A stretch of DNA of 15,806 nucleotides from a virus (IMGVR_UViG_2623620496_000009); one strand, 5' to 3'. Positions 1 to 15,806 are shown, counted from the first letter of the stretch. The notes: generated from the letters alone by a model not told the origin. Numbers and translations are program-made.

Positions 1-258
1 ATGCAAACCGTTATTTTTGGTCGTTCGGGTTGCCCTTACTGTGTGCGTGCAAAAGATCTGGCTGAGAAATTGAGCAATGAACGCGATGATTTTCAGTATC
101 AGTATGTAGATATTCGTGCGGAAGGGATCACTAAAGAAGATCTACAACAAAAGGCAGGTAAACCCGTAGAAACCGTGCCGCAGATTTTTGTCGATCAGCA
201 ACATATCGGCGGCTATACCGATTTTGCTGCATGGGTGAAAGAAAATCTGGACGCCTGA
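1..258 (+). CDS. grxA: Glutaredoxin 1
   Basis: Complete 85-aa ORF starting with ATG at position 1. CPYC active-site motif (GCPYCVRAK) and overall sequence recognised as E. coli GrxA. Confidence 0.95.
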   Translation: MQTVIFGRSGCPYCVRAKDLAEKLSNERDDFQYQYVDIRAEGITKEDLQQKAGKPVETVPQIFVDQQHIGGYTDFAAWVKENLDA

Positions 259-267
259 TCGTCTGAC

Positions 268-300
268 AAGCCCTCGCGTTGAGGGCTTTACTGATTTTTT
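268..300 (+). terminator. Putative intrinsic terminator downstream of grxA
   Basis: Inverted repeat aagccctc / gagggctt (268-275 and 281-288) with a 5-nt loop, followed by a T-run at 295-300. It overlaps the convergent ybjM stop codon. Confidence 0.5.
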
Positions 301-665
301 CTGTGCTGTGGTTTAAACAAACTACTGATAAATAAGAAACACAGTGCCCCCAGCGCACACCAGAACACCGCGCTTAGTAACCATGCCAGCTCTTGCCAGA
401 ATGAGCGCGTCGGTGAAAAAAACAGCCGCATAATGAGCATCGAACAGGGTGCCGCCAGCATTGCGCCAAACAGAGGTTTCAGGACTTCTCTACGCTGTGA
501 AAAGAAGCTGGCGACTGCTCCAGGAAGAATGAAAAATAGCAAGCCGATTTCAGGATGCCCGGCAGCCCGAAAAGCGCCTTTCATGTGCGTCGCCAGAAAA
601 AGGCACACCACAATGAAGAGGACAAAACAGCAGATTGCCCCCGCCCAACGTTGTTTATGTTTCAC
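288..665 (-). CDS. ybjM: Inner membrane protein YbjM
   Basis: 125-aa hydrophobic ORF convergent with grxA, matching the length and conserved position of E. coli ybjM between grxA and ybjL. Confidence 0.85.
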   Translation of the reverse strand: MKHKQRWAGAICCFVLFIVVCLFLATHMKGAFRAAGHPEIGLLFFILPGAVASFFSQRREVLKPLFGAMLAAPCSMLIMRLFFSPTRSFWQELAWLLSAVFWCALGALCFLFISSLFKPQHRKNQ

Positions 666-934
666 TCGTTCCTCCTGACACTGCGTCTATCGAACACATT
701 TTTCGCCAGTGTGGCGTTCAGTAAGATAAAGCCGCTTCGCATTCCATGCTAATATAGGCCAACGCAATTCATATAGCCGTTGATACCTAATGTGATTACA
801 CTAGTAAAATATATTGTTACTTTACTATCGTTTAGGTGCGCTGAATGAATCTGCGCCCTGAATTCTGGTAAAAAACATTATCGTAAATTACCATTTCTTT
901 CAACAGCTTACTAGTAAACAAGAAGTTAGCCTCC

Positions 935-2620
935 GTGAATATAAACGTCGCCGAATTGTTAAATGGGAATTACATTTTGTTATTATTTGTGGTCCTCGCG
1001 CTTGGGCTATGTCTCGGAAAGTTACGACTTGGTTCGATCCAACTGGGTAATTCCATTGGCGTTTTAGTCGTATCGCTGTTATTAGGCCAACAACATTTCA
1101 GCATTAACACCGATGCGCTTAATCTTGGCTTTATGCTGTTTATTTTCTGCGTCGGGGTCGAAGCCGGACCGAACTTTTTTTCCATTTTTTTTCGCGATGG
1201 GAAAAATTACCTAATGTTAGCACTGGTGATGGTTGGCAGTGCGCTGGTGATCGCCTTAGGGTTAGGTAAGCTGTTTGGCTGGGATATTGGCCTGACGGCC
1301 GGTATGTTAGCAGGCTCTATGACGTCGACACCGGTTCTGGTCGGTGCTGGCGATACACTGCGTCATTCCGGCATGGAAAGCAGGCAGCTCTCACTGGCAC
1401 TGGATAATCTGAGCCTCGGGTATGCCTTAACCTATTTAATCGGTCTGGTGAGTTTGATTGTTGGTGCGCGTTACTTGCCGAAATTGCAGCATCAGGACTT
1501 ACAGACCAGCGCCCAGCAAATCGCCCGCGAACGTGGCCTGGACACTGATGCCAACCGTAAGGTTTATTTACCGGTGATCCGCGCCTATCGCGTCGGCCCG
1601 GAGCTGGTGGCCTGGACCGACGGCAAAAATCTGCGTGAACTGGGTATTTATCGACAAACCGGCTGCTACATTGAACGTATTCGACGTAACGGGATTCTGG
1701 CAAATCCAGACGGTGATGCCGTGCTACAAATGGGCGATGAAATAGCGTTGGTAGGCTATCCCGACGCCCATGCCCGACTCGATCCCAGCTTCCGTAACGG
1801 TAAAGAAGTTTTCGATCGTGACCTTCTCGACATGCGTATCGTCACTGAAGAAGTGGTCGTTAAAAACCATAACGCTGTAGGTAAACGTCTCGCACAACTG
1901 AAGTTGACCGATCACGGTTGCTTCCTTAACCGCGTCATTCGTAGCCAGATTGAGATGCCGATAGATGACAACGTCGTGCTTAACAAAGGTGACGTTTTAC
2001 AAGTCAGCGGTGATGCCCGTCGCGTAAAAACCATCGCCGATCGCATCGGCTTTATCTCGATTCACAGCCAGGTCACTGACCTGCTGGCATTTTGCGCCTT
2101 CTTTGTTATTGGGCTGATGATCGGGATGATCACCTTCCAGTTCAGCACATTCAGTTTCGGCATGGGGAACGCTGCCGGGTTGTTATTCGCCGGAATTATG
2201 CTGGGCTTTATGCGTGCTAACCACCCGACCTTCGGTTACATTCCGCAAGGTGCATTAAGCATGGTGAAAGAGTTCGGCTTGATGGTGTTTATGGCAGGCG
2301 TTGGTCTGAGCGCCGGTAGCGGTATTAATAACGGCCTGGGCGCGATTGGCGGTCAGATGTTGATTGCCGGATTAATTGTCAGTCTTGTGCCCGTGGTTAT
2401 CTGTTTCTTGTTCGGTGCTTATGTATTGCGAATGAACCGCGCACTGTTGTTCGGCGCAATGATGGGCGCACGCACCTGCGCGCCGGCAATGGAGATCATC
2501 AGTGATACAGCTCGCAGTAACATCCCTGCGCTGGGCTATGCGGGCACCTACGCAATCGCCAACGTCCTGCTGACGCTGGCAGGGACAATCATCGTCATGG
2601 TATGGCCAGGATTAGGATAA
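935..2620 (+). CDS. ybjL: Putative AAE-family transporter YbjL
   Basis: 561-aa ORF with a GTG start at 935. Hydrophobic N- and C-terminal halves flank a soluble central region, and the N-terminus [25 protein letters not shown] is recognised as E. coli YbjL. Confidence 0.9.
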
Positions 2621-2732
2621 AACTGAAGTTGCCCTGAAAATGAAATTTTTTTGCACAACCGCAGAACTTTTCCGCAGGGCATCAGTCTTAATTAATGCCA
2701 CTGCTTTTCTTTGATGTCCCCATTTTGTGGAG

Positions 2733-2775
2733 CCCATCAACCCCGCCATTTCGGTTCAAGGTTGATGGGTTTTTT
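2733..2775 (+). terminator. Rho-independent terminator-like hairpin in the ybjL / prophage-end spacer
   Basis: Perfect 10-bp inverted repeat cccatcaacc (2733-2742) / ggttgatggg (2760-2769) with a 17-nt loop, immediately followed by tttttt (2770-2775). Confidence 0.55.
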
Positions 2776-2855
2776 GTTGCCTAAAATTTATTCTATTTAA
2801 AATCATGAGGTTAGAAGCACTGTTTTTTAACGATGGCGACAAAATGGCGGCAGCG

Positions 2856-3074
2856 TCAAAGAGAGAGCGCCACCTGTCCTGATTTCATTGGATGCGGCTG
2901 AACCGGATTTGACTCTTTTGGCGTTGCAATCGAACGAACAAAAGTTTCATGGGTAACAAAAGTATGGCTGCAGTTAATATTCTGGCACTGGTTGTAACGC
3001 TCTTTGGTCAATGAAGATACCTGAAAACTGCTGCGAGTATGGGCGGCACTTCCACACAGTGGGCAAATCATCAT
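2856..3074 (-). CDS. ogr: Late-gene transcriptional activator Ogr/Delta family (zinc finger)
   Basis: 72-aa product from the ATG at 3072-3074, MMICPLCGSAAH...YNQCQNINCSHTF, with the Cys-X2-Cys ... Cys-X4-Cys arrangement and strong resemblance to P2 Ogr. The six-frame ORF extends to a GTG at 3107, but the ATG is preceded by a GGGGAG Shine-Dalgarno-like sequence. Confidence 0.85.
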   Translation of the reverse strand: MMICPLCGSAAHTRSSFQVSSLTKERYNQCQNINCSHTFVTHETFVRSIATPKESNPVQPHPMKSGQVALSL

Positions 3075-3111
3075 TTTTCGAGTTCTCCCCATTTTTGCTA
3101 AATTCACAATA

Positions 3112-3139
3112 ATGATACCGCATTATTCCATTTTGCAAA
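3112..3139 (-). promoter_or_regulatory. Candidate sigma70 promoter for ogr
   Basis: On the minus strand, TTTGCA (forward 3134-3139), a 16-bp spacer, then TATCAT (forward 3112-3117), about 35 nt upstream of the ogr ATG. Confidence 0.4.
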
Positions 3140-3164
3140 CTTAAAAGTTCTCCATTGCGAAGAA

Positions 3165-4265
3165 TCATTCCATTTCGAAATCATCAATCCTCACTTCAAG
3201 CTCCAGACTGGTCGTAAAACCGTTATCCGGGCTGACGGTATGCGTCAGAGTCGTAATGGTCCATTCCGCATCATCTATCGGCTGTTTAAAGCCACTGACT
3301 TTCACTGGCATTTCCGTGTAGAGATCTGCCCGACCTTCCGCCAGTTGTAGCGAGAATGACGCAACGCCGCGTTGCAGGCGTTCCCACTGCATTTTCGCCG
3401 CTCGTTCGGCGTTGCTCCGGTTGGCATAAGTGCGATTAAGTACCAGCACGTTTTCATCCGTACCCACCAGGTAATCGCCCTGCTTCGCTTCCGGCTCTTT
3501 CTTCTGCTTCTTAGTCCTGCGCTTACGCTTCACCGTGGTGCTTTCTTTCTTCGAGGGTTCGCGAGTATGCAACCAGCTGGCAATTACGCCCGTGTAAGCT
3601 CCGCGATCTGCCAGGGTAAAGCGGTGACTGTCGCCGTCCTTACGTGTGATAGTGATCACCGGCAGTGGTTTACCGCTGGCACTTTTACCCTGTCCCTGTC
3701 GGATGAATAACAGATTGCCATTTTTCACTGACGCGATAGCACCGTACTGGCGCGCCAGCCGCATCAGAAAACTGCCGTCACTCTCATTAGTCTGGTCTAT
3801 ATGTTCCACGGGCTTATCCGACAGGTCATTACCCAGTGCCATCTTCAGCTTGTGACGCGCGGCTATTTCCTTGACCACTTCCCCGACAGTGGTCTTGTGC
3901 CACGACTTTTCACGGCGGGTATTCAGCGTTTCACGAAAATCAGCACTTCGCGCCCGGATAGTCAGGCGGTCCGGTGCGCCAGTGTGTTCAATCTCGTCCA
4001 CCGTGAATGCCCCTTTCGGGAAAAGCGGCTGCCCCTTCCAGCCCAGCGCCAGCGTAATGACCGCACCACGGCGCGGCAGCGCTATTTTTCCATCGGCGTC
4101 GTCCAGCTCCAGATCAAGCTGGTCCGCTTCAAAGCCCCGGTTATCCGTCAGCGTCAGCCTCATCAGGCGGTTATCCAGCACAGTGGTGATATCCCTGCCC
4201 TCAATACTGATGCTGAATGCGGGAGTTTTGTTGCCTTTGTTAAGCAGTTCAGAGCTGAAATTCAC
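3165..4265 (-). CDS. D: Tail protein D (late control gene D family)
   Basis: 366-aa ORF recognised as a P2 gpD homolog. Its start overlaps the U stop by 4 bp. Confidence 0.9.
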   Translation of the reverse strand: MNFSSELLNKGNKTPAFSISIEGRDITTVLDNRLMRLTLTDNRGFEADQLDLELDDADGKIALPRRGAVITLALGWKGQPLFPKGAFTVDEIEHTGAPDRLTIRARSADFRETLNTRREKSWHKTTVGEVVKEIAARHKLKMALGNDLSDKPVEHIDQTNESDGSFLMRLARQYGAIASVKNGNLLFIRQGQGKSASGKPLPVITITRKDGDSHRFTLADRGAYTGVIASWLHTREPSKKESTTVKRKRRTKKQKKEPEAKQGDYLVGTDENVLVLNRTYANRSNAERAAKMQWERLQRGVASFSLQLAEGRADLYTEMPVKVSGFKQPIDDAEWTITTLTHTVSPDNGFTTSLELEVRIDDFEME

Positions 4266-4747
4266 GACAGCAGCCCTCCCACCGTTTTACTGATATCACT
4301 TAAGGCAGATGTTGCCGTGTCCTGCAGATTATTCAGTTGCGTACTGAGATCACCGAACATATCGGACAGGGATTCATCCACCCGTTTGAGCGACAGGGTG
4401 AACTCAATCCGCCGCGGCATACCGTCGCGGAAAAACTCCGTTTTAGTCAGATTCAGTCCCTCAATCACATACATGCCGTAAATCGTGCCGCTGCCTTCAA
4501 TCAGGGGCCATGCTTTTCCCTGTTCTGCCATCTGCTCCAGAGCCAGCAACGACAGCCTGCCGCCCGTTATCTCCGGCATAAGAACACCAGAAAGCGTCAG
4601 CATGTCGTTGTCCGGTCCCAGAAACTGCGTGGACGGACGACGGTTTACCCGGCTGTTTGCCGCATGTCGCCAGCTGCGTTGATACTGCAGTTCCTGATAC
4701 GGAACGGTGCGCAGCATAAACACGTACAATCCCAGCACCATCATCAT
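4262..4747 (-). CDS. U: Tail protein U (tail terminator)
   Basis: 161-aa ORF, P2 gpU-like in size and position. Its start overlaps the T stop by 4 bp. Confidence 0.85.
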   Translation of the reverse strand: MMMVLGLYVFMLRTVPYQELQYQRSWRHAANSRVNRRPSTQFLGPDNDMLTLSGVLMPEITGGRLSLLALEQMAEQGKAWPLIEGSGTIYGMYVIEGLNLTKTEFFRDGMPRRIEFTLSLKRVDESLSDMFGDLSTQLNNLQDTATSALSDISKTVGGLLS

Positions 4748-7700
4748 GCGTCGTATCCCCCCTGATCGCTGTAGTTACTCCTGGCTTTTGCCTTCAGCCT
4801 GCGTTCACGTTCATCAAGCTGGCGTGCCACCTCCCGCGCAATATCCTGCGCACTTTGTCCTGGCTGCATCTGAATGATGATCTGCGTCGGTGCCTCAATC
4901 CTGTAAACGGGCGGCACAGTGGCTGCACGACTCACCATCGCTTCGCCGCCTTTCGCGGGAAGTGCCAAAGGATGCAACGGTGGAAGCTCTGCAGGCGCGG
5001 CAGCAACGCCCATCATTCCGGCAACAACGGCAGCCAGTGCAGCTGTATTTCTCCGGCTGGTCACATTTGCCGGGCCGTTAACAATTTCCGGCCCGTTTTC
5101 ACCGACGATGCCAAACTGCCCGCGCGGGATATAGCCGCCGCTGTCATACATCCCCGCAAAGCCATATCCCCATGACGGAAAACCACCCGATGGCATCATC
5201 ACTTTACCGTTTGTATTCACCGTCGCAGGTTGCTGACGCGTCACACTTTCCGGTAGTTTCGCCTTTGCGGCCTCTTTACTGACAACGCCGAGTTTCTCCA
5301 GCAACCAGGAAACGCCGGATTTCAGGGAGTCCAGCGGATGCATGACCATATTCAGCCCTTCCGCCAGTGCCTCCCCGAATCGCCGCCCCATTGCCGCTGC
5401 ACTCTGCAGTTCGGCAGAGGTTGACTTAACGGGCGTCAGCAGATCAGTAAACCAGCCCCACAGCGCCTGTACTTTGTCGCCAATCCACTGGAACACGGGC
5501 TTAAGCGGTTCGAATGCTGCACTGACGGGACCTGCCGCCGCTTTGAATCCTTCCACCACGCCACCAAGAAATGCGGTGATGGGTTGCCAGTATTTCCAGA
5601 CAACCAGCGCCACGCCCGCCAGTGCAGTAACCACAAGACCTATCGGACTGAGCAGAGCACCTAACAGACCAGATACGGCATACAGGGCAACGCGCAGCAT
5701 CGCCAGTGGACCAGATGCCAGTACTCGCAGCACCGTGCCTGCGGCGGCCAGTCCACCACGCAGTACCGCCAGAGGATTCATAAACATCACAGCAACAGCA
5801 CGTAAACCGGATAATCCAGACCGCAAAAGTGCAACCGGCGCACCTGCTACAGTTTTCAGGACATTTCCCGTCAGTGATGCCGTGCGGCGCAAAGACGACA
5901 ACGGCGCAGTAAGTAAACCCGCAGCGTGGCCCGATGAAGCAAGCCCGCGTCGCAGCAGTGCCAGTGGTGCGCCAGCCAGCCAGGACAACGCGCTGCTGGT
6001 TCGAGTTACTGCTGCCGTAACGGAAGGTAACGTTTTGATACCCAGCACAGAGAACCCCAGACGGATCACTGCCAGCGGCCCCAGCACTGCAGCTAACACC
6101 ACCGCTAAGGTGCCGAGGCCCACGGTAACCGCAGCCACAACAGCCGCCGCTTTCATCAGTGTGCCCGTCAGTTCCGGGTTAGCTTCCACCCAGCGACGCA
6201 ACGCCCCCGTGACGCTTTTCACCGTGAACAGAATATCCATCAGCGGCTGGCGCAGCGTTTCGCCCAGGCTGCTGAAGGTGTTCTGCGCTCCGGTTTTGAC
6301 CAGCAACCACTGAGCAGAAAGTGAGTCTTTGTTGATGTCGGATTCTTTCTGCATGGAGCCGAGCGCATCATTGCCCGCTGTCAGTTTTAGCTGGCGCTGC
6401 AGTTCCGGCAGGTTGTTTGCCAGTTTCGCCGCGTCATCGCCAAACTCTTTACCAAACAACATGGTCATGGCAGACAGGCGCTTATCCTGCGGCAGCGCGT
6501 TCACCTTCTCCAGCACGCGCTGGATGGTTCCCATCGCATCCTTCGTCATCTGCTTTTCAATCACTTCAGGATTGAGTTTCAGCAGATTCATCCCTTCAAA
6601 GAAACTCTTGCTCTGCATGGTGGCAATGGACAATTCACGCACCATCGCGTTTGCTGCACTGGCTGCAACCTCTGGCGCAGCGCCCAGTGTCAGGAAGGTG
6701 GAACCCAGCGCCGCCGCTTTACGATAATCCAGACGATCAGCCACACCGCCCAGGCGTTGCATGACATCAATGATGTCTGCCCCTTTCGACATGGCGTTAT
6801 CATCCAGATAGTTCAGCGCATCACCGAGCTGTTCAATATTGCGGGTAGGGATTTTGTAGAGCTGGGCGATTTTCCCCAGACTTTCTGACAGTTCATCCGC
6901 TGGCAGCTCAAAGGCTGTTGCCGCCTTTGCTGCCGTACTGGCGAAGGCCAGCAGGTCACGTTTCTGGTCCTCCCAGCTGTCGTCAGGGTTTGCAACGTTC
7001 ATACGCGCACCACCTTCAACCAGTGCAGCGAAGTCCACCGCACCGTTTTCCATCGGCAACTGTTCGCTGGCAGCTTTGATGGCATCCTGCATTTCATAAA
7101 AACGTGCAGTGCGGTTGCCATTATCGTCACGCAGACCATTGACCTGCTTTGCCACACCTTTCATGGCATCTTCCATGCTGGTATAGCTTTTTACTGCCGC
7201 CATCACTGGCGTCCCCATTGCCAGCCCTGCCGCCGTGGTGGTGGCTCCGGTTCCTGCGATGCGATCGCGCACCTCCAGCGAACGGGCATAACTGGCACGC
7301 GCTGCATTCATCCTGCGCTGAGCTTCCCCCAGTCGCTTCAGCCGCGCCTCCTGTTTCGACAGTTCCTGGTTATAACGTGATGTTTCACGGGCTAAACGGG
7401 CAGTTGCTCCCGCATCATCTTTCGCAGAAATTCCCGCCCGGTACAGTTCTGCACGCACAAGCGCCGTTTGCTTCTGCAAATATTTTTGTTGTTCTTCCAG
7501 GCGTTGGACTGCCAGTGTTTGCCGACCTAAAGCCACAAGGTGCCGTTGTGATGGTTGTTCCATCGCTTCCAGCTCAGAACTAAGCAAATTTGCCTTCTGT
7601 CTGGCATAGTTCAGCCTGTCGCCTAACTTTTTGTTATCGGCCTGCAGCTTGCGAAATTTTTCCAGGCTGTTACCCGCCTGATTGAGTTGCTTTAATGCGT

Positions 7701-7821
7701 CACGGGAGTTTCTGATTGCGCCAGCCAGCTCTTTCGAACTGGCCTGTGCAGCACGGAATGGGCGGGTGAGTTTGTCAACCGCATTAAGAATGACCTGCAG
7801 GCGCAGGTTATTATCACTCAT
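4744..7821 (-). CDS. T: Tail tape measure protein
   Basis: 1025-aa ORF with a coiled-coil-like N-terminal region, a central Ala/Leu/Gly-rich hydrophobic repeat region (PLAxLRxGL-like motifs) and a C-terminal domain; P2 gpT-like position after E/E'. Confidence 0.9.
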   Translation of the reverse strand: MSDNNLRLQVILNAVDKLTRPFRAAQASSKELAGAIRNSRDALKQLNQAGNSLEKFRKLQADNKKLGDRLNYARQKANLLSSELEAMEQPSQRHLVALGRQTLAVQRLEEQQKYLQKQTALVRAELYRAGISAKDDAGATARLARETSRYNQELSKQEARLKRLGEAQRRMNAARASYARSLEVRDRIAGTGATTTAAGLAMGTPVMAAVKSYTSMEDAMKGVAKQVNGLRDDNGNRTARFYEMQDAIKAASEQLPMENGAVDFAALVEGGARMNVANPDDSWEDQKRDLLAFASTAAKAATAFELPADELSESLGKIAQLYKIPTRNIEQLGDALNYLDDNAMSKGADIIDVMQRLGGVADRLDYRKAAALGSTFLTLGAAPEVAASAANAMVRELSIATMQSKSFFEGMNLLKLNPEVIEKQMTKDAMGTIQRVLEKVNALPQDKRLSAMTMLFGKEFGDDAAKLANNLPELQRQLKLTAGNDALGSMQKESDINKDSLSAQWLLVKTGAQNTFSSLGETLRQPLMDILFTVKSVTGALRRWVEANPELTGTLMKAAAVVAAVTVGLGTLAVVLAAVLGPLAVIRLGFSVLGIKTLPSVTAAVTRTSSALSWLAGAPLALLRRGLASSGHAAGLLTAPLSSLRRTASLTGNVLKTVAGAPVALLRSGLSGLRAVAVMFMNPLAVLRGGLAAAGTVLRVLASGPLAMLRVALYAVSGLLGALLSPIGLVVTALAGVALVVWKYWQPITAFLGGVVEGFKAAAGPVSAAFEPLKPVFQWIGDKVQALWGWFTDLLTPVKSTSAELQSAAAMGRRFGEALAEGLNMVMHPLDSLKSGVSWLLEKLGVVSKEAAKAKLPESVTRQQPATVNTNGKVMMPSGGFPSWGYGFAGMYDSGGYIPRGQFGIVGENGPEIVNGPANVTSRRNTAALAAVVAGMMGVAAAPAELPPLHPLALPAKGGEAMVSRAATVPPVYRIEAPTQIIIQMQPGQSAQDIAREVARQLDERERRLKAKARSNYSDQGGYDA

Positions 7822-8250
7822 CGTTAGCCCCGCTTCTCTGAATCGCTTTATACCGCCATTCCAGCACTTCGGTCAGCGGCATAACGTCAGTAACGGATGG
7901 CGGCCAGTGAAAGATGGTGGCGATATCAGCCACCAGATCGTCAACCGTCAGGCTGTCGGTAAACCGGCAAGCACCGACTTCTTCAACAAAAAAGTGACAA
8001 CCTCAACCGACATAGCGGTGAGATCTGCCGGGTCCATCTCTGCAATTTCCTGTGCAGTCAGTGCCGGGCTGGAGATGCGGGGGATCACGGTCATCATCGC
8101 GTTCACATCCATATCCATAATGGCCTGCAGGCGTGTACCGCGCAGTGCACCAGACTGCGGTTTACGCAGCACAATTTCGGTGATTTCCGTTTTACCGCGC
8201 TTGATAGGGGTATCCAGTTGAATAGTCTTTTCAGTCTGCTTATCGCTCAT
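7814..8250 (-). CDS. E+E': E+E' tail assembly chaperone made by a programmed -1 frameshift (about 145 aa)
   Basis: Slippery site TTTTTTG on the minus strand (forward 7987-7993). The -1 frame stays open for about 57 codons (VEEVGACRFTDS...AIQRSGANDE) to a TGA at 7814-7816 that overlaps the T start codon (ATGAGTGA). The predicted size is close to the P2 E+E' product as recalled. Confidence 0.6.
7948..8250 (-). CDS. E: Tail assembly chaperone E
   Basis: 100-aa ORF directly upstream of T, with a T6G slippery heptamer 12 codons before its stop; P2 gpE-like. Confidence 0.85.
   Translation of the reverse strand: MSDKQTEKTIQLDTPIKRGKTEITEIVLRKPQSGALRGTRLQAIMDMDVNAMMTVIPRISSPALTAQEIAEMDPADLTAMSVEVVTFLLKKSVLAGLPTA
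7987..7993 (-). other. Programmed -1 ribosomal frameshift slippery heptamer (U UUU UUG)
   Basis: Forward caaaaaa is TTTTTTG on the coding strand, aligned X XXY YYZ in the E reading frame. Confidence 0.6.
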
Positions 8251-8304
8251 TTTGTTGTCCTGTAAATTGGGTTCTGGCGCGGAATCCCGCGCCGTTCAGA
8301 TACA

Positions 8305-8820
8305 TCAGAGGCCGAGGGCGTTGCGGTGCGCTTCCATCAGGTCCACACCGTCCACAATTTCCACCATGTTGATAAGGTCCACTTCATAGAGCACCTCACC
8401 ATTGATAGTCAGCTTCGCGTAGCTGTTGGTACTGGTCACTTTGGTGGTGTTGCTTTCGCCCGTCTTCCACTCACCGGAATCCACTTCTTTGTGACGTCCG
8501 CGCACCACAAGCTCCACGGCCTGCACTTCCCCGGTATCGTCACGCTGGATAGAGCCGGTAAAGCGCAACTGGATACCATCCACCGTGGCTTTGCCCATCT
8601 GCTTAAACAGCAGCAGTTCAGTACCACCAATGGAAAATTCCGTATCCAGTGCGCCGTCATCCAGCCCCAGATCAACATCCACTGCACCCGGCATTCCGCC
8701 GCCGCGATACTTCTCATATTTGCGGGTGAATTTCGGCAGCGTCAGCGACTCAACGATCCCCTGCCAGTTGTTCCCGTCATTAAACAGGTTCAGGTGTTTT
8801 AATTTGCGTGGTAAAGCCAT
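8305..8820 (-). CDS. FII: Tail tube protein FII
   Basis: 171-aa ORF recognised as a P2 gpFII homolog, 9 bp downstream of FI. Confidence 0.9.
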   Translation of the reverse strand: MALPRKLKHLNLFNDGNNWQGIVESLTLPKFTRKYEKYRGGGMPGAVDVDLGLDDGALDTEFSIGGTELLLFKQMGKATVDGIQLRFTGSIQRDDTGEVQAVELVVRGRHKEVDSGEWKTGESNTTKVTSTNSYAKLTINGEVLYEVDLINMVEIVDGVDLMEAHRNALGL

Positions 8821-8829
8821 GTTGTCCCC

Positions 8830-10002
8830 TTACGCGCTGACCTGGCTGGAGAAATTCACCAGGTACTGATCGGTGATGCGCTGACGCAGCATCAGGTTTT
8901 CAAGTGGCGGCACTGGTGTGTAGTCGTAGTCGATGGTGAGTTTTCCAGCTTTCAGAGTGTCTTTGTCGTTCACCGACTCATCCAGCCAGCAATCGCCACC
9001 AATGAGATAGCCCTGACTGATCAGGCTGCGCATTTTGGCGCGGATACCTTCGATAATGTCGCGGGCCAGCGACGGATTCAGCGGTTTGTCGACAGCCCAC
9101 ATTGGCGCTTCTGCCATCGTGTCCATCAGCACCTGCGCCGTGCGGGTGTTGTTTTCGAAGGCAAAGAGTGGGTCATCACTCAGACAGCGGGAACCCCAGA
9201 AGCGAAAGCCGTCTTTGCGGATAAGTGTGGTAACATCGTTCTGGTTAAGCAGTCCCGCATCAGTTGCCGGGTCCTGCAGATCCCAGAACACATCAGCAGA
9301 AATTCCAGTGACACCGTTCACGCCCACGTTGGACAGGCTTTTGTGCCACCCTGTCTGCTCATCAATTTTGGCACGCAGACCAAGCGCACGGGCGGTGGCA
9401 TATGCCGTTGCGTCGGCATTCAGCACCGTGTCCCAACCAGTAAAGTCAGGCCAAATCAGCATCCCTTCACGCTGACTGAAGTTTTCACGGTAAGTGATCG
9501 CCTCCTGCACCGTCTTGCAGCCATACGCTGACAGGTAAGCAAACCCACGCAGGCTTTGCGCCACGCCCAGCAACTCAGTAGCAACGGCTTTATTATCGTG
9601 CCCCGGCACGCCGAGGATGCGCGGTTTAACACCGAGCTGTGACTGGGCAGATAACAGGGCTTTCATACCAGTTTTTTTACCTTCAGCAGTCACTGCGCCG
9701 ATGATATTGGTCGTGGTTTCTTCTTCCGTTTCACCCTGCGGCACACGCACAACAACGGTCACGGGTTTTGCCTGGTCAGCGATGGCATCCAGCGAGCGGG
9801 CCAGCGTACCGGATTCACCCGCCTTACCGCTGGCAGTAAGCACATCAGTGATTAGCACGGGTTTATTAAGAGGGAACATTTTTGCATCGGCATCATCGCC
9901 CGTGCAGACCATGCCCACGATGGCGGTGCTCACCGTGGTAATGGATCGAGTGCCTTCGTTGACTTCAACAACGCGCACTCCGTGGTGGTAATCCTGAGCC
10001 AT
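8830..10002 (-). CDS. FI: Contractile tail sheath protein FI
   Basis: 390-aa ORF with strong resemblance to P2 gpFI ([19 protein letters not shown]..., [13 protein letters not shown]). An AGGAGG Shine-Dalgarno sequence lies 9 nt upstream of the ATG. Confidence 0.95.
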
Positions 10003-10078
10003 AGTGGCGAACCTCCTGATTGGATTAGGCTTCGCCCTATGTTGAAGTGATTGTGTCTGACAAGCAGCTAAGCGCAGT

Positions 10079-10096
10079 TGTACCGTTATTCACACA
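10079..10096 (-). promoter_or_regulatory. Candidate Ogr-type activator site (TGT-N12-ACA) of a PF-like late promoter
   Basis: TGTaccgttattcacACA lies in the 106-bp spacer between the tail fibre assembly gene and FI, centred about 85 bp upstream of the FI ATG. No convincing -10 hexamer was found by eye. Confidence 0.35.
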
Positions 10097-10108
10097 AAAT
10101 GACGGTAT

Positions 10109-10522
10109 TTATCTGCTTGCAGGGAAAACAGGCCAAATAATATCAGGTGCGGTGCTGGTATCTGTTGCCGTCACAGCCTCGATATAATCCAGCACAACGT
10201 TAAGTCGGGTAGTTTCCTCTTGCGTCAGTTTGCGCCCGGCCTGCAGCTTTAACTGAATCACGCTGATATTGACCATTGCTGCGTCTATCAACGACTGTTT
10301 TTTCTGTTCAGCGTCAGCTACCAGTTCATCATGAGAACGTTCCGGAGTGGGTGGTGCAGTAAATACCCCGTCTGAATACGCCCAGCCGATTCCGGGCTGC
10401 TCACTGATATCAGAAATATTAATGAGCTGCAGATTATCCGGCACAGTGAATTCATCCTCGCCATCCCAGACAATGACATTCACAACCATCCCATTTTCAA
10501 TAACTGCATATGACGCATTCAT
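10109..10522 (-). CDS. G: Tail fibre assembly protein (Caudovirales Tfa family), in the P2 G position
   Basis: 137-aa product from the ATG at 10520-10522, preceded by GAGGAG. The C-terminus ...DTSTAPDIIWPVFP is the characteristic Tfa ending. The start overlaps the H stop (TAATG). The six-frame ORF extends 8 codons further to a TTG. Confidence 0.85.
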   Translation of the reverse strand: MNASYAVIENGMVVNVIVWDGEDEFTVPDNLQLINISDISEQPGIGWAYSDGVFTAPPTPERSHDELVADAEQKKQSLIDAAMVNISVIQLKLQAGRKLTQEETTRLNVVLDYIEAVTATDTSTAPDIIWPVFPASR

Positions 10523-12441
10523 TATGCAAACTCCTCGATAATACAAACCCCATCAGCACCTTTCCCGCCCGTCATACTGGTTCCGCTATAACCTGCATCG
10601 TATGCACCACCTCCGCCTGAACCAAATGCCCTGCCTCTAACGCCACCGCCAGCGCCTGCGCGTCCACCGCCACCCCAGTACGATGTTCCGCCTTCACCGC
10701 TGACGCCGATATTTCCGGACTGACCGTCGCCTCCATCTCCACCAGTGATGCGGATATCGCCAGTACTCGGCACACCTCCGTTACCGCCGTTTGTGTTTGT
10801 AACACCCACTTTCCCGCCACCTTCGCCACCAGGAGCAATTAACGATGCGAATACGCTATTCCCGCCCCTGGTGCCGTTCGTTGCACTAACACCACCGGCC
10901 CCACCTGCGCCGATAGTGACTGGATAACTATTCTGTGTCGGGGTCATTATTGAAATTATTGTTCCACCGGCCCCACCGCCAGCACCGAAAAACGTTTCAT
11001 TATTGGATGTAGCCTTGCAGCCGCCCCCTCCGCCACCGCCGCCCGTTATTGTGACCCTGATCCGTTTTGTTTCTGGTGATGGGGTATACGTACCTGATGA
11101 CGCGAAAGCCCGGGTACTCAGCCGGCGTCCCACGTATCCGCTTGTATCTCCCAAACCAAGATAACGAATAACCTCCTGTTTGCTTGTTTTAGCCAGAATA
11201 TCCCGTCCAACATTAGTCAGGGTTGTCAGGCTGGCTGTATCATTCCCCGTAAAATACGGTAGTTTGTCTGCCGCAGTGGCAAGGCCTGCCAGTGCGGTCA
11301 GTGTGGCGTCGGCAGGTTGTTTTCCATTGGCAAGGTCATATACAGCCTTCACAGCTTTTGGTGTGGCAGCCTGCGTTTCTGACGTGCTGTTAGTGGCGCT
11401 GCTGAGTTGCACGGTACCTTTTACCGTCAGTGAAGCTGCAGGCACATCCGTTATCTGGCTCCACGGGTGCGTGTGACTGACAGGTGCCTTACCTGCTGCA
11501 AGGTCATATGCCGCCTTCACTGCCTTTGGTGTGGCAGCCTGCGTTTCTGACGTGCTGTTAGTGGCGCTGCTGAGTTGCACGGTGCCTTTTACCGTCAGTG
11601 AAGCTGCAGGCACATCCGTTATCTGATTCCACGGGTGTGTGTGACTGACAGGTGCCTTACCTGCTGCAAGGTCATATACAGCCTTCACTGCCTTTGGAGT
11701 GGCAGCCTGCGTTTCTGATGTGCTGTTAGTGGCGCTGCTGAGTTGCACGGTGCCTTTTACCGTCAGCGAGGCTGCAGGTACACCTGTTATCTGATTCCAC
11801 GGGTGTGTGTGACTGGCGGATGCTTTACCTGCTGCAAGATCATATGCAGCCTTCACAGCCTTCGGTGTTGCGGCCAGTATTTCGGATTCACTGTTGGTCG
11901 CACTGCTTAACTGAGTAAAACCTTTTGCGGTCAGCGAGGCGTCCGGGTGACGTCGTGACTGTTCGTGCTCTGATATTTTGTCATCCACATACTTGCGGGT
12001 TGCCAGCACTACAGCAGGGTCGATTTTCAGGATGATATTGTCCGTACTGCTGGTAATCAGCACCATGCGCACGGTCTGGGTACGCCCACTGCCTTCAGCC
12101 AGTTGCGGCTTATAGCTTTCCGGGCAGTTACCCACGGCAATCAATGCCCCGGACTCATCAAACAAGCCCACTTCACGTATCCACCAACCGCCCTCGTTTT
12201 CAGGGATCACCTGTTCAGCAATAATCTGGCTGCTGTTCTGCGGGTCGATATAAAGCATATTCAGCGCAGCCCGGCGTTTCTCATTTACCAGTGCCGTCTG
12301 CTTTGCGTCCGGCGTTGGCAATACTCCGCCGCCATCGCCCACCGCCATATGGGTAATTTTTAGCGGCACACCGAGCGCGGCGGCGCTGGCAAGTTTCGCC
12401 GCGCCAATATCCGTCAGCAGGGTATAAAATTTTGTGCTCAT
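10522..12441 (-). CDS. H: Tail fibre protein (P2 gpH-like N-terminus, Phage_fiber_2-type repeats, Gly-rich C-terminal domain)
   Basis: 639-aa ORF. The N-terminal ~165 aa resemble the P2 H baseplate-attachment region. It is followed by four tandem ~56-aa repeats (LSSATNSTSETQAATPKAVKA...HTHPWNQIT) and a glycine-rich C-terminal third. Confidence 0.9.
   Translation of the reverse strand: MSTKFYTLLTDIGAAKLASAAALGVPLKITHMAVGDGGGVLPTPDAKQTALVNEKRRAALNMLYIDPQNSSQIIAEQVIPENEGGWWIREVGLFDESGALIAVGNCPESYKPQLAEGSGRTQTVRMVLITSSTDNIILKIDPAVVLATRKYVDDKISEHEQSRRHPDASLTAKGFTQLSSATNSESEILAATPKAVKAAYDLAAGKASASHTHPWNQITGVPAASLTVKGTVQLSSATNSTSETQAATPKAVKAVYDLAAGKAPVSHTHPWNQITDVPAASLTVKGTVQLSSATNSTSETQAATPKAVKAAYDLAAGKAPVSHTHPWSQITDVPAASLTVKGTVQLSSATNSTSETQAATPKAVKAVYDLANGKQPADATLTALAGLATAADKLPYFTGNDTASLTTLTNVGRDILAKTSKQEVIRYLGLGDTSGYVGRRLSTRAFASSGTYTPSPETKRIRVTITGGGGGGGGCKATSNNETFFGAGGGAGGTIISIMTPTQNSYPVTIGAGGAGGVSATNGTRGGNSVFASLIAPGGEGGGKVGVTNTNGGNGGVPSTGDIRITGGDGGDGQSGNIGVSGEGGTSYWGGGGRAGAGGGVRGRAFGSGGGGAYDAGYSGTSMTGGKGADGVCIIEEFA
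11326..11940 (-). repeat. Tandem 168-bp in-frame coding repeats in the tail fibre gene (three full copies plus one partial)
   Basis: Near-identical DNA units, e.g. gccttcac[a/t]gc[t/c]tttgg[t/a]gtggcagcctgcgtttctga[c/t]gtgctgttagtggcgctgctgagttgcacggt, recurring about every 168 bp. Confidence 0.85.
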
Positions 12442-13043
12442 GGATTCACTCTCATTGTGTCAATAACATGGACCGCCCCGCCTTCATGCGCGGTGCCACC
12501 GGAAATAATCGTTTCGTTGATATACGGATAGATCGTGATTTCTTCGCCAAGATAGCTGGCGGCTCCCACCCAATGCGGGCCGCTGGTCTGCAGATTGATG
12601 GACATGCCGATCATGTGGCGGCTACATGGTTTGGCATCGCTTATCAGTCGCTCAAGTTCCAGATAGGTATCTTCAGTGATACCCTGGTCCTGCACGCCGA
12701 TATCCAGGCGAAACGTGCCCGGTGCCTCTCCGGTCTGCCACCACTCAATAATGCGGATCAGAAAGCCGAACGGCTCCACCACCCGCCGCACGGCACTGGT
12801 GGTCCCTTTATGCTGATGAATATAAAAAGCATCCTTCACCACCTGGCGCTTGACGCTTTCTGTCCAGCCCTCGTCCCAGCGATCTACAGAGAACGCCCAG
12901 GCGAGATAAGGCAGGAAACTGACCGGACAGGTTGCCGGATTCCACAAGTCACGAAGCGGCACCTGCAGATCAGAAATCCCGCTGCAGGTTTGCGCCAGTC
13001 GGCGCTCCAGTGGTGTTGAACCCGGTGGCAGCAGACTATTCAT
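12438..13043 (-). CDS. I: Baseplate protein I
   Basis: 201-aa ORF recognised as a P2 gpI homolog (conserved LWNPATCP...LPYLAWAFSVDRWDE). Its start overlaps the J stop by 8 bp. Confidence 0.85.
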   Translation of the reverse strand: MNSLLPPGSTPLERRLAQTCSGISDLQVPLRDLWNPATCPVSFLPYLAWAFSVDRWDEGWTESVKRQVVKDAFYIHQHKGTTSAVRRVVEPFGFLIRIIEWWQTGEAPGTFRLDIGVQDQGITEDTYLELERLISDAKPCSRHMIGMSINLQTSGPHWVGAASYLGEEITIYPYINETIISGGTAHEGGAVHVIDTMRVNP

Positions 13044-13944
13044 CCGTTCCTCCGTTGGTTACGCTCCACTGCGTACATGATGCCGCCTGTGTTTTGTTCA
13101 GGACCACATCCTCCAGAGGAGAAGCCAGCTCCACACGCTGCACACCCTCAACATGCAGGGCGGCAAAGATGGCGCTACGGCGAATATCCCGACCAAGACG
13201 CGTCTGACTGGCGATGTACTTCTGCAGGCTGGCTTTTGCCGCTGCCATTACCGGCTCTGCTTCCGGTCCAGGATAGAGAAAAATGGTGGCTTCCACGCGA
13301 TACGGGATGATTTCTGCGCTGCGAACCGTAAGACGGTCAGCCACCGGGCGGACGTTCTCACTGTTCAGAGCTTTTTCCACCACGTCCAGCAGGTCTTTTT
13401 CTGCAGTTCCGTCGCCTTCGCGGCTAAGGACAGTCAGCACCACCTCTGCAGGTGCCGGGCTGGTTGCACTGGCATCCGCCACCCGACCGTCGGCGCTTCG
13501 GGCATGAAATTCATAAGCTGCAGTTGGCCCCGCAACTGAAAGCCCTTCAAAGGCTGCAGGCACACGCAGGCGTAACGCTTCATCGCTTTCCATCACAGCT
13601 GCAACGGGCGGCACAGCGTCATTATCAGCAGGCGTCACCGTCAGGCGTTTCACGTTGTAGTTGGCAGCGAGCTGGTCAAGATCGCTGCCCATCGCGTAAG
13701 CCACCATCACAGCCTGCGCGGCTTCGTTAATGCGCTGGCGCAGAAGCAACTCACGGTAAGCGTTCTCCTGCAGCAATTTGGTGACGGGTTCAGATTCCAG
13801 TTCCAGCGTGCGGATCACTGCTTCCTGCTCATCTTTCGGATGAAGCGCAACAAATCCGGCCTTGCGTTCGGCAAGCAGCGTCTCAAAGTCCGGCACATCC
13901 ACAATCTGCGGCGCAGGCAACTGCGAAAGGTCAATCACTGCCAT
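13036..13944 (-). CDS. J: Baseplate protein J
   Basis: 302-aa product from the ATG at 13942-13944 (MAVIDLSQLP...), preceded by AGGAG. This matches the P2 gpJ length as recalled. The six-frame ORF extends 13 codons further upstream. Confidence 0.9.
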   Translation of the reverse strand: MAVIDLSQLPAPQIVDVPDFETLLAERKAGFVALHPKDEQEAVIRTLELESEPVTKLLQENAYRELLLRQRINEAAQAVMVAYAMGSDLDQLAANYNVKRLTVTPADNDAVPPVAAVMESDEALRLRVPAAFEGLSVAGPTAAYEFHARSADGRVADASATSPAPAEVVLTVLSREGDGTAEKDLLDVVEKALNSENVRPVADRLTVRSAEIIPYRVEATIFLYPGPEAEPVMAAAKASLQKYIASQTRLGRDIRRSAIFAALHVEGVQRVELASPLEDVVLNKTQAASCTQWSVTNGGTDE

Positions 13945-14290
13945 TCTCTGCTCCTGTTGATACTGAAAGGGACACAGGCACACCGTTATTCCGCCGCCCG
14001 GTCAGCTCCACCACCATTGAACCGTCAAAATTGCTGTTAATAGTGATGGAATCCAGCGTCAGCCGTGGCTCCCAGCGACTCAGTGCCACATACACAGCCG
14101 ACATAACCTGCAGGCGTAACGCCGGATTTTGTGGCTGATCTATCAGTGCCGACAGCAGGGAACCATATTCCCGACGGGCAATGCGGCTACCCTGCGGCGT
14201 CAGCAGAATGTCCCGCACCGACTGGCGCAGATGGTCAATATCAGTAATGGCTTTACCGTTGGTATTGTTCATCCCGCTATAAAGCGTCAT
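13931..14290 (-). CDS. W: Baseplate wedge protein W (GPW/gp25 family)
   Basis: 119-aa ORF, P2 gpW-like. Its ATG overlaps the V stop (ATGA). Confidence 0.85.
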   Translation of the reverse strand: MTLYSGMNNTNGKAITDIDHLRQSVRDILLTPQGSRIARREYGSLLSALIDQPQNPALRLQVMSAVYVALSRWEPRLTLDSITINSNFDGSMVVELTGRRNNGVPVSLSVSTGAENGSD

Positions 14291-14865
14291 ACCGGGCCTC
14301 CGGTTGTGTCGCCGCCTTTCAGGACGCCAGTATGCTGATGCGCATCAACCACGATCCCGTTAGAACTCATTGCTCCGCCACCCTGGGTAACGCCACCATT
14401 GATCACCACTTCGCTGTTAATGCGCGTGCGGTCAGCCTCCAGTACAAACTCACTGGTTTTCATGGTGATGTTGTCAGCGGCCTCAATGACCATTGATTTG
14501 ATGCCCCTGACATACCAGCGCCCGGTGGCGGGTTCATATTCAAACCAGCCACCGTCCGGGTATTCCGTCACGTTGCCGTCCTCAGAGCCTGAAGGTGGCG
14601 GAAACTGGTTTGAGTAGACCGCAGGCAGGGCAAACGCGGTTTCCAGATTGCCGCCAAGGCTGAACAGCACAACCTGCTCACCCACAGACGGTTTCCACCA
14701 GGTGCGCGATTTGCCCGCGCGCAGTGTCAGCCAGTTAATCCAGTTGGTTTCGAGGTCGCCAGTTTTCACCCGACACAGCCAGTTTGCCCTGTCCACTTCG
14801 GTGACTACACCTGTGCGGATCAGGTTGGTGATAAGGCGCATGATTTCGGTTAATTGTGCGTTCAT
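14287..14865 (-). CDS. V: Baseplate spike/hub assembly protein V
   Basis: 192-aa ORF, P2 gpV-like (MNAQLTEIMRLITNLIRTGVVTEVD...). It is the first gene of the V-W-J-I-H-G block. Confidence 0.9.
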   Translation of the reverse strand: MNAQLTEIMRLITNLIRTGVVTEVDRANWLCRVKTGDLETNWINWLTLRAGKSRTWWKPSVGEQVVLFSLGGNLETAFALPAVYSNQFPPPSGSEDGNVTEYPDGGWFEYEPATGRWYVRGIKSMVIEAADNITMKTSEFVLEADRTRINSEVVINGGVTQGGGAMSSNGIVVDAHQHTGVLKGGDTTGGPV

Positions 14866-14911
14866 AGGGAAAGGTTGCCATCAATAGCAAGCAGTAGACA
14901 GCCTTTGTAAT

Positions 14912-14929
14912 TGTATTAGACATAGAACA
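14912..14929 (-). promoter_or_regulatory. Possible Ogr-type dyad (TGT-N12-ACA) upstream of V
   Basis: TGTattagacatagaACA is centred about 55 bp upstream of the V ATG. That spacing is unusual if the dyad sits near -55 from the transcription start, so this may be a chance match. Confidence 0.25.
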
Positions 14930-15085
14930 AATGCCTTTCAATGGTCTGCGTTAGAGCATTAATACGTTGCAAAAGGTCGAATGACGTTGCGCAAGTTAAG
15001 AAGTTCAATGCTCTTAAAAAAGCACTTGAAAGCAACGCCTTTAATTATTAAAAGCCAATTAATTTAGGCGGTTACTATGTTATCT

Positions 15086-15114
15086 TTGACACAAAAGATG
15101 TTTATTGACAATAT
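15086..15114 (+). promoter_or_regulatory. Candidate sigma70 promoter for the DUF262 gene
   Basis: TTGACA (15086-15091), a 17-bp spacer, then CAATAT (15109-15114). A second TTGACA lies at 15105-15110. An AAGGAG Shine-Dalgarno sequence at 15131-15136 sits 7 nt before the ATG. Confidence 0.35.
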
Positions 15115-15143
15115 ATAAGTTCAATCTAACAAGGAGAAAAATT

Positions 15144-15806
15144 ATGCCAAATGAAAATCTTGATATTGACTCAAGGACTACCGAGCAATTATACGAATGG
15201 TATTTGCAAGGAAATTTGATAGTCAATAGACGTTATCAAAGGAAACTTGTATGGTCTCTAGAAGAAAAGACTTCTTTAATATCTTCTATGCTGCAACAAT
15301 ATCCTATTCCGTTATTATTATTTGTTACCATCAATGAACAAAGAGAAATATTGGATGGAATGCAAAGATTAGAAGCAATTATGAGCTTCATCGAACAGAG
15401 ATTTTCATTAGATGGACAATATTTTGATTTGGACTCTATAGCTTTAACAAAACAACTTAAAGATAATGGAACTTTAATTCAGAAAGAACCAATCCTTTCC
15501 CGTGATTCTTCAGCAATTATTGCACGTTATCGATTTGCAATATCAGAATATAGCTCCACAAATGAAAATATTGACGAAGTATTCAGACGAATAAACTCAA
15601 ACGGGAAGATTTTATCCAAACAAGAATTACGTAGTGCAGGAACAGTTAGTAACTTCTCTGAACTGGTCAGATCGATATCAACATCGATCAGAGGTGATAC
15701 TAGCCATTCTGACATTATGAATCTCGGTAATGACTCCAACTTACTGATAGTGTTTTATGTTCAGATAATGCCCGATGACTTTGTCATGCAGCTCCACCGA
15801 TTTTGA
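15144..15806 (+). CDS. DUF262 / ParB-like nuclease-superfamily protein (GmrSD N-terminal-type domain), 220 aa
   Basis: ATG at 15144 with a strong RBS. Motifs read directly from the translation: YQRKLVW, QQYPIP, ILDGMQRL (DGQQR-like), and FRRINSNGKILSKQELRSA (the second DUF262 signature). The gene is AT-rich and divergent from the phage V operon. Its stop codon is the last three bases of the window. Confidence 0.7.
   Translation: MPNENLDIDSRTTEQLYEWYLQGNLIVNRRYQRKLVWSLEEKTSLISSMLQQYPIPLLLFVTINEQREILDGMQRLEAIMSFIEQRFSLDGQYFDLDSIALTKQLKDNGTLIQKEPILSRDSSAIIARYRFAISEYSSTNENIDEVFRRINSNGKILSKQELRSAGTVSNFSELVRSISTSIRGDTSHSDIMNLGNDSNLLIVFYVQIMPDDFVMQLHRF

Follow-up and report, generated by a model that had tools for sequence, protein, structure and literature searches.

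The stretch of DNA that we analysed, 15,806 nucleotides in length and hereafter called the window, holds the tail half of a P2-like prophage, read from the minus strand. Pfam assignments give the gene order V-W-J-I-H-G, FI-FII-E-T-U-D and ogr on that strand (Table 1), and RefSeq annotates Escherichia coli CFSAN064035 with an identical arrangement; the sequence of that strain differs from the window by one base across positions 1-15645. Among named phages, the closest are Cartapus (Elveevirus) and 500465-1 (Wadgaonvirus), two Escherichia phages of the Peduoviridae. The host element is a P2-like (Peduoviridae) E. coli prophage integrated beside ybjL. The junction between prophage and host lies between ybjL and ogr, at 2621-2855, where the attachment-site core and the terminator of ogr and the F operon are expected. 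At the other end of the window, the S-V interval, which is the orf30 position in P2 and the other cargo site, is occupied by an AT-rich gene (15144-15806, plus strand; Pfam E = 8e-19) of DUF262/GmrSD_N, a family of type IV restriction/defence proteins. This gene is cut from 15726 by an IS1 end (GGTAATGACTCCAACTTACTGAT), while CFSAN064035 diverges about 80 bp earlier (window-equivalent 15646) and then carries an IS1B transposase gene. Judging by these breakpoints, the window and CFSAN064035 appear to hold two independent IS1 insertions in one DUF262/GmrSD_N gene.

The stop codon of G (TAA, 10111-10109) and the ATG of FI (10002-10000) enclose a spacer of exactly 106 bp (10108-10003), the length that the initial annotation had given. 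Its description of the interval as a G-spacer-FI junction stands, but the direction had to be corrected: the genes read on the minus strand and the promoter discussed below points from 10108 towards 10003. We found no gene in the spacer, only mechanical antisense ORFs of 20-46 aa; PGAP annotates nothing inside it in CFSAN064035, and Rfam gave no match in 9800-10400 at E ≤ 1. A scan of 9700-10500 detected neither a sigma-70 consensus promoter, which is consistent with activator dependence, nor an intrinsic terminator, which rules out a canonical one. Of 5,426 complete E. coli genomes, 828 contain the 126-bp spacer sequence, with no annotated feature beneath it in seven of the eight matches listed.

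Table 1. Genes and predicted regulatory features around the G-FI spacer. Positions refer to the window unless preceded by a locus number (L).
Feature	Position	Strand	Basis and remarks
V	14865-14287	minus	Pfam
I	13043-12438	minus	Pfam
H	12441-10522	minus	Pfam
G, tail fibre assembly, 137 aa from ATG	10522-10109	minus	Pfam Caudo_TAP, E = 1.4e-20; PGAP in CFSAN064035
FI, tail sheath, first gene of the FI-FII-E-T-U-D operon	10002-8830	minus	Phage_sheath_1, E = 3e-32
FII	8820-8305	minus	Pfam
E	8250-7948	minus	Pfam
T	7821-4744	minus	Pfam
U	4747-4262	minus	Pfam
D	4265-3165	minus	Pfam
ogr, 72-aa Ogr/Delta zinc-finger activator	3074-2856	minus	PF04606, E = 6.7e-22; PGAP
ybjL, host gene	935-2620	plus	Pfam
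Predicted Ogr/Delta-type activator dyad, TGT-N12-ACA (extended TTGT..ACAA)	10096-10079 (extended 10078-10097)		Pattern, conservation, P2 reference
Weak -35-like hexamer CTGCTT	10067-10062	minus	TG 10066-10065 almost invariant in the dyad-anchored profile
-10-like hexamer CAACAT (family pattern nAnCAT)	10044-10039	minus	Starts 35 nt after the dyad; same at PV and PO
Predicted transcription start of the FI operon	10032-10029	minus	P2 geometry; conserved A 10032 (profile position 76), 7 nt after the hexamer
Shine-Dalgarno of FI, AGGAGG	10017-10012	minus	Sequence; GGAG column nearly invariant
Fold-back hairpin	10041-10000	minus	Fold of about -20 kcal/mol; arm covariation; opening energies
Nested inverted repeats over the G stop and the dyad	10119-10061 (arms 10119-10109/10071-10061 and 10107-10098/10090-10081)	minus	Fold; no U tract
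PV dyad, TGT-N12-ACA	14929-14912		Centre 55.5 nt from the V ATG (14865)
PO/PP dyad, divergent O-P gap of the same prophage	L085 34300-34283		Whole-prophage look in CFSAN064035
Acyl_transf_3 genes between G and FI in relatives, 362-403 aa	L010 1684-2772; L026 1572-2678; L054 1585-2769 (same in L069); L074 1380-2591	both orientations	Family match

The spacer carries a TGT-N12-ACA dyad, which reads TGTGTGAATAACGGTACA on the coding strand; its presence at 10079-10096, as first reported by the initial annotation, is a direct reading of the sequence. This pattern is the consensus for the late promoters PP, PO, PV and PF (PMC3931495). The centre of the dyad, 10087.5, lies 85.5 nt from the FI ATG. The bare pattern occurs seven times in the 15.8-kb window, compared with 4.33 ± 2.1 times in shuffled sequence, and at least seven matches were seen in 32 of 200 shuffles. 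We rejected this count as evidence, as it does not exceed chance, and the case for the dyad is therefore made from position and conservation alone. Each of the two late-promoter intervals of P2 type in the window holds one of the seven matches.

Conservation was examined at two depths. In a close-relative set of 80 IMG/VR contigs with FI at least 97% identical to the window FI, a perfect dyad lies 83-85 nt from the FI ATG in 79 of 79 IMG/VR and phage relatives having upstream sequence. Among these, the relatives that we call class B have a spacer otherwise unrelated to that of the window, yet they carry the dyad TGTGCCATTTTTCATACA at 84 nt, with a GC hairpin and a T run before it, and have GAACAT at the offset that CAACAT occupies in the window. 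The species-level set held one genome per species, giving 80 loci with FI 71-98% identical to the window FI, from Escherichia, Enterobacter, Citrobacter, Klebsiella, Raoultella, Pantoea, Erwinia, Tatumella, Serratia, Plesiomonas, Xenorhabdus, Photorhabdus and Providencia. In 71 of these 80 loci, the centre of a perfect dyad is 78-85 nt away from the FI start, compared with 0.27 expected from a background rate of 4.2e-4 per nt. The nine exceptions include five with TGT-N12-ACT at 80 nt and two with a different start-codon call. Across 152 loci we counted 68 distinct dyad 18-mers, so the half-sites are fixed while the N12 between them drifts. Conservation in related phages, on which the initial annotation had made its claim depend, thus holds in both sets. 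Two further symmetric candidates were rejected: TACCGT-N15-ACGGTA is broken in many relatives that keep TGT/ACA, and the palindrome TGTCAGACA (10060-10052) is destroyed in most relatives by an A-to-G change.

We then aligned 103 unique promoters without gaps, anchored on the dyad. The information-rich columns of the resulting profile are TTGT and ACA (near 2 bits), TG at +13/+14, nAnCAT at +35 to +40 and an A at +47; within nAnCAT, position 2 (A) and positions 5-6 (AT) are nearly invariant. In the window, CTGCTT and CAACAT are 17 bp apart; from the dyad centre it is 43.5 nt to the first base of the nAnCAT hexamer and 55.5 nt to the conserved A 10032. By its sequence, the profile is that of a weak sigma-70 promoter, with a -35 TG, a 17-bp spacer, a -10 and a predicted start 7 nt further on. 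We infer this start from P2 geometry, an extrapolation from a phage whose FI is 67% and whose Ogr is 51% identical to those encoded here, and the activator site would then be centred at about -55.5. In the four P2 late promoters with mapped starts, the corresponding distance between activator-site centre and start is 55-58.5 nt.

A MAFFT alignment of the spacer with P2 PF proved unreliable, since it matched the P2 dyad to bases lying downstream of the one in the window, and we compared the two by distances to the ATG and to annotated features in its place. In P2 (GenBank AF063097), the PF activator site lies at 17555-17583, transcription starts at 17626-17628 and the FI ATG is at 17652, which puts the dyad centre 82.5 nt from the ATG. 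The initial annotation had called the spacer PF-like, and the sequence supports this reading through the matching distances (85.5 nt here versus 82.5 nt in P2), the TG, CAACAT and the conserved A.

The cognate activator gene is intact. The ogr product retains the Ogr motif CX2CX22CX4C (PMC3931495), which we read from its translation as CPLC-X22-CQNINC. Upstream of V, the PV dyad is followed after 34 nt by CAACCT, and in P2 the same 55.5 nt separate the centre of the PV site from the V ATG, the annotated start site there; the V mRNA is probably leaderless, as annotated in P2. The PO/PP dyad, TGTGTGGTTGTCGGTACA, closely resembles that of PF. At all three promoters CAAC follows the dyad at exactly 35 nt, as CAACAT at PF, CAACCT at PV and CAACCA (AACCAT) at PO. 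The PF, PV and PO/PP gaps total about 526 bp and hold one dyad each, compared with about 0.13 expected overall, a figure scaled down from the 10.5 matches that chance would give across the 42.5-kb locus. The proposal that Ogr-dependent late regulation is retained gains support from the intact ogr gene and from this matching geometry at V and O-P. From the anatomy, geometry and conservation observed at the spacer and the presence of ogr, we infer Ogr binding and Ogr dependence, and we consider it very probable that the spacer is the Ogr-activated PF late promoter of a P2-like E. coli prophage, with no accessory gene between G and FI.

The interval that is empty here is variable in relatives. 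According to PMC3091744, which cites Nilsson and Haggard-Ljungquist, P2-like phages hold horizontally acquired genes at three variable loci: the TO-region, the Z-region (Z/fun) and orf30. Our occupancy counts cover the IMG/VR set with FI at least 97% identical. In 54 of about 80 relatives, a serine invertase of the Gin type (Resolvase + HTH_7) lies just upstream of the spacer, accompanied by alternative fibre and assembly genes in inverted orientation. Five relatives carry Acyl_transf_3 (PF01757) membrane acyltransferase genes at G-FI, representing four different genes in either orientation, which by family are probably O-antigen acetylases or modifiers of lysogenic conversion; two more hold inverted fibre remnants. 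The junction is empty in the window and seven relatives of its type, in which G abuts the promoter, in 11 class B relatives and in one further relative (L083). A tblastn search with P2 Z/fun gave no match in the relatives examined. The view of this hotspot as unoccupied is therefore borne out: it holds no gene or known RNA here, while relatives with nearly the same FI carry cargo at the site. The comparison with P2 and P2-like genomes that the initial annotation had proposed shows an interval that is variable, empty in the window and consistent in keeping the dyad.

The window and invertase types become homologous at 10128, inside the last six or so codons of G (10128-10109). In Cartapus and 500465-1, the DNA homologous to the last six G codons (10109-10128 in the window, L002 3985-4040 among the relatives) is non-coding and follows the invertase gene. 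The relic after the invertase stop in Cartapus reads ..IPASRQ where the window has ..FPASR*, the stop being lost. By its sequence, this relic of the G 3′ end marks the recombination junction of the invertase cassette and, since invertase types keep a remnant of the G C-terminus, points to the empty junction as the older state.

Other accounts of the spacer have to be weighed against a PF promoter. The dyad could be a chance match without a regulatory role, FI being expressed by read-through from V-G. The number of matches in the window, 7 against 4.3 expected, is not significant and fits this account, and read-through is plausible because the scan found no terminator between G and FI. Even so, a chance match is close to refuted, and we give it almost no credence: 71 of 80 species-level loci keep the position against 0.27 expected, the dyad recurs in the unrelated spacer of class B, and PV and PO/PP share both the motif and its spacing to a -10-like box. 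The nested repeats that cover the dyad, TACCGT..ACGGTA and CAAGCAG..CTGCTTG, could alternatively be mainly an RNA 3′ structure or terminator of the V-W-J-I-H-G transcript, with the TGT/ACA symmetry as a by-product. RNA from 10125-9990 does fold better than shuffled sequences (z = -3.4), and a true terminator, a canonical GC hairpin with a T run, stands at the corresponding place in P2 and class B relatives. The window has no such element at that position, neither of its stems precedes a U tract, and the scan reported no terminator. Moreover, a GT-to-AC change breaks the inner repeat in 500465-1 and many relatives with TGT/ACA intact, and a C-to-A change unpairs the outer stem in several. We therefore regard a terminator role as very improbable; the repeats are not a canonical terminator and carry little weight, and the window type appears from its sequence to lack a V-operon terminator.

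The history of the empty site admits a second version, in which the junction is the scar of a deleted invertase/alternative-fibre cassette or other cargo and not a site that was never occupied. The cassette is present in 54 of about 80 close relatives, and homology of both types begins inside the G 3′ end, at 10128, as deletion would allow. Set against this, the degenerate ..IPASRQ relic is more easily explained by insertion into a window-like ancestor, and we think a deletion scar unlikely. Under either history, the G-FI site is empty now.

Downstream of the -10-like box, the leader can fold into a hairpin that covers the FI start codon. The 5′ arm CATAGGGCGAA (10041-10031) comprises the last bases of the -10 box together with the discriminator, and the 3′ arm TTCGCC-A-CTATG (10011-10000) the stretch between Shine-Dalgarno (SD) and AUG plus the AUG itself; an inner stem pairs part of the SD. 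Relatives form the same hairpin with other arms, including GGCAG/CTGCC, GTAGCGG/CCGCTAC, AAGGCAT/ATGCCTT, GGGTGAA/TTCATTC, GCGAAA/TTTCGC, GAAGCT/AGCTTC and GTCAC/GTGAC, and we found at least nine different arm pairs. RNAalifold gave no consensus structure on a MAFFT alignment of 69 leaders, because the stems, shifted by bulges, are out of register in it. Clustering of the leaders told us nothing, as almost every sequence was drawn into a single cluster. We instead used alignment-free swap and permutation tests of pairing, leaving out the shared CAT and ATG. The 10 nt following each -10 box paired more strongly with the leader's own 10 nt ahead of the ATG than with those of divergent relatives, a median of 0.11 of the swaps doing equally well. 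In permutation sets of 10-14 sequences, whose members differed from one another in both arms at 4 or more of 10 positions, the summed duplex energy of own arms was -47.6 kcal/mol versus -30.5 kcal/mol under the null, with a median permutation p of 0.004 and p < 0.01 in 74% of sets. We judge it probable, on this covariation, that pairing of the arms is under selection. In the PO/PP gap (L085 34205-34346), GCTCC after the -10-like box is complementary to the O SD region GGAGC, a hint that pairing between discriminator and ribosome-binding site (RBS) is perhaps not unique to PF.

The 5′ arm falls after the -10 box and ahead of the predicted start, so RNA started at PF would lack it. The predicted energy required to open the RBS averages 13.2 kcal/mol in read-through RNA versus 9.3 kcal/mol in PF-initiated RNA and is higher in the former for 98 of 106 promoters. 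Compared with a control in which the upstream sequence was shuffled, the opening energy is 12.6 versus 10.3 kcal/mol and higher in 54 of 68 distinct leaders; about 14 of the 68 show no extra occlusion over shuffled upstream sequence. Taken alone, the window gives a weak signal (16.0 versus 12.4 ± 2.2 kcal/mol, with 7% of shuffles as high). P2 has a weak equivalent, in which CACTCA (17622-17627) pairs with TGAGTG (17653-17658) and the mapped start cuts the 5′ arm. We tentatively propose, as a possibility that we do not favour beyond this, that the hairpin may be a fold-back insulator, such that the sheath would be translated only from RNA of the Ogr promoter and not from RNA entering from upstream.

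The main rival of insulation is that the hairpin belongs to the PF mRNA itself, as a 5′-terminal stem-loop that stabilises the message or tunes FI translation, which requires a start at or before 10041. The covariation of the arms agrees with such a role, as does the location of the SD in or near the loop in many relatives. The promoter profile, however, with its TG, the 22 nt to the A of nAnCAT and the further A 7 nt on, puts the start inside the 5′ arm, and so does P2, where the mapped start at 17626-17628 also cuts the arm CACTCA. With a start at 10041 the activator site would moreover be centred at about -47, a distance seen at none of the four P2 late promoters. We hold a 5′-terminal stem-loop to be doubtful, and somewhat more so than insulation.

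Put together, the promoter would work as follows. After the onset of replication, Ogr made by the prophage would, by analogy with P2, bind the dyad about 55 bp upstream of the start and recruit sigma-70 RNA polymerase through its alpha subunit to the weak core CTGCTT-17 bp-CAACAT, and transcription from near 10032 would express FI, FII, E/E′, T, U and D. If the hairpin insulates, only RNA begun upstream, by V-G read-through or, in relatives, from cargo, would form it and bury the FI AUG. RNA from cargo expressed in the lysogen, such as the invertase or O-antigen acyltransferases, would likewise be left untranslated for FI.

The lineage very probably keeps the textbook P2 late-gene switch, and the leader hairpin alone goes beyond textbook P2 biology. 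The promoter itself matters little as a finding; the lineage is common in E. coli, and its Z-region happens to be empty. More useful are the dyad-N34-nAnCAT arrangement, which provides a position-specific rule for annotating PF, PV and PO/PP in P2-like prophages, and the G-FI junction, which is a defined place to seek cargo such as invertase cassettes and O-antigen acyltransferases. Should the hairpin be functional, the phage would shield its late structural operon from transcription out of an adjacent cargo hotspot, and such insulation, if true, would account for a cargo hotspot directly beside a late promoter with no leaky expression of tail genes in lysogens.

Further members of the Ogr/Delta family that activate late promoters are P4 Delta (at Psid and PLL), 186 B and PSP3 Pag. 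Their promoters share the half-sites seen here and are served by activators of the same small C4 zinc-finger class, but they belong to satellites or other genera. The closest counterpart is P2 PF. As there, the window promoter lies directly upstream of FI, with about 83-86 nt between dyad and ATG and about 55-58 nt between dyad and start (here predicted), the -35 and -10 are weak, and the cognate ogr ends the same operon beside the attachment site. The spacer sequences themselves are not alignable. Unlike in P2, where both the PF and PO sites are imperfect (TGT-N12-CCA), the window dyad is perfect, so perfection is not itself a requirement. P2 has a terminator upstream of its dyad that is absent from the window, and the 1.6-kb Z/fun with its flanks separates the P2 promoter from G, whereas the window promoter abuts it. 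The Z-region of P2 is the same G-FI interval, in which inserts vary among close relatives and which is empty in the window.

For the hairpin, the nearest comparison comes from insertion sequences. A search of the open-access literature for a P2 FI leader hairpin and for IS10 fold-back inhibition returned a description of neither. Fold-back inhibition of translation of the IS10/IS50 transposase in read-through transcripts was reportedly described by Davis, Simons and Kleckner in 1985 and by Krebs, Schulz and Reznikoff. In IS10/IS50, one arm lies upstream of the element's own start and the other over the start codon, so that only external RNA forms the stem. The hairpin described here is alike in that its 3′ arm covers the AUG; its 5′ arm (10041-10031) would lie ahead of the predicted start (10032-10029). 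IS200 combines a terminator with a leader hairpin that sequesters the SD (PMC4513863). The present case differs from IS10/IS50 in that the gene served would be the first of a phage late structural operon and not a transposase, and its start is predicted and its mechanism proposed by analogy with these elements.
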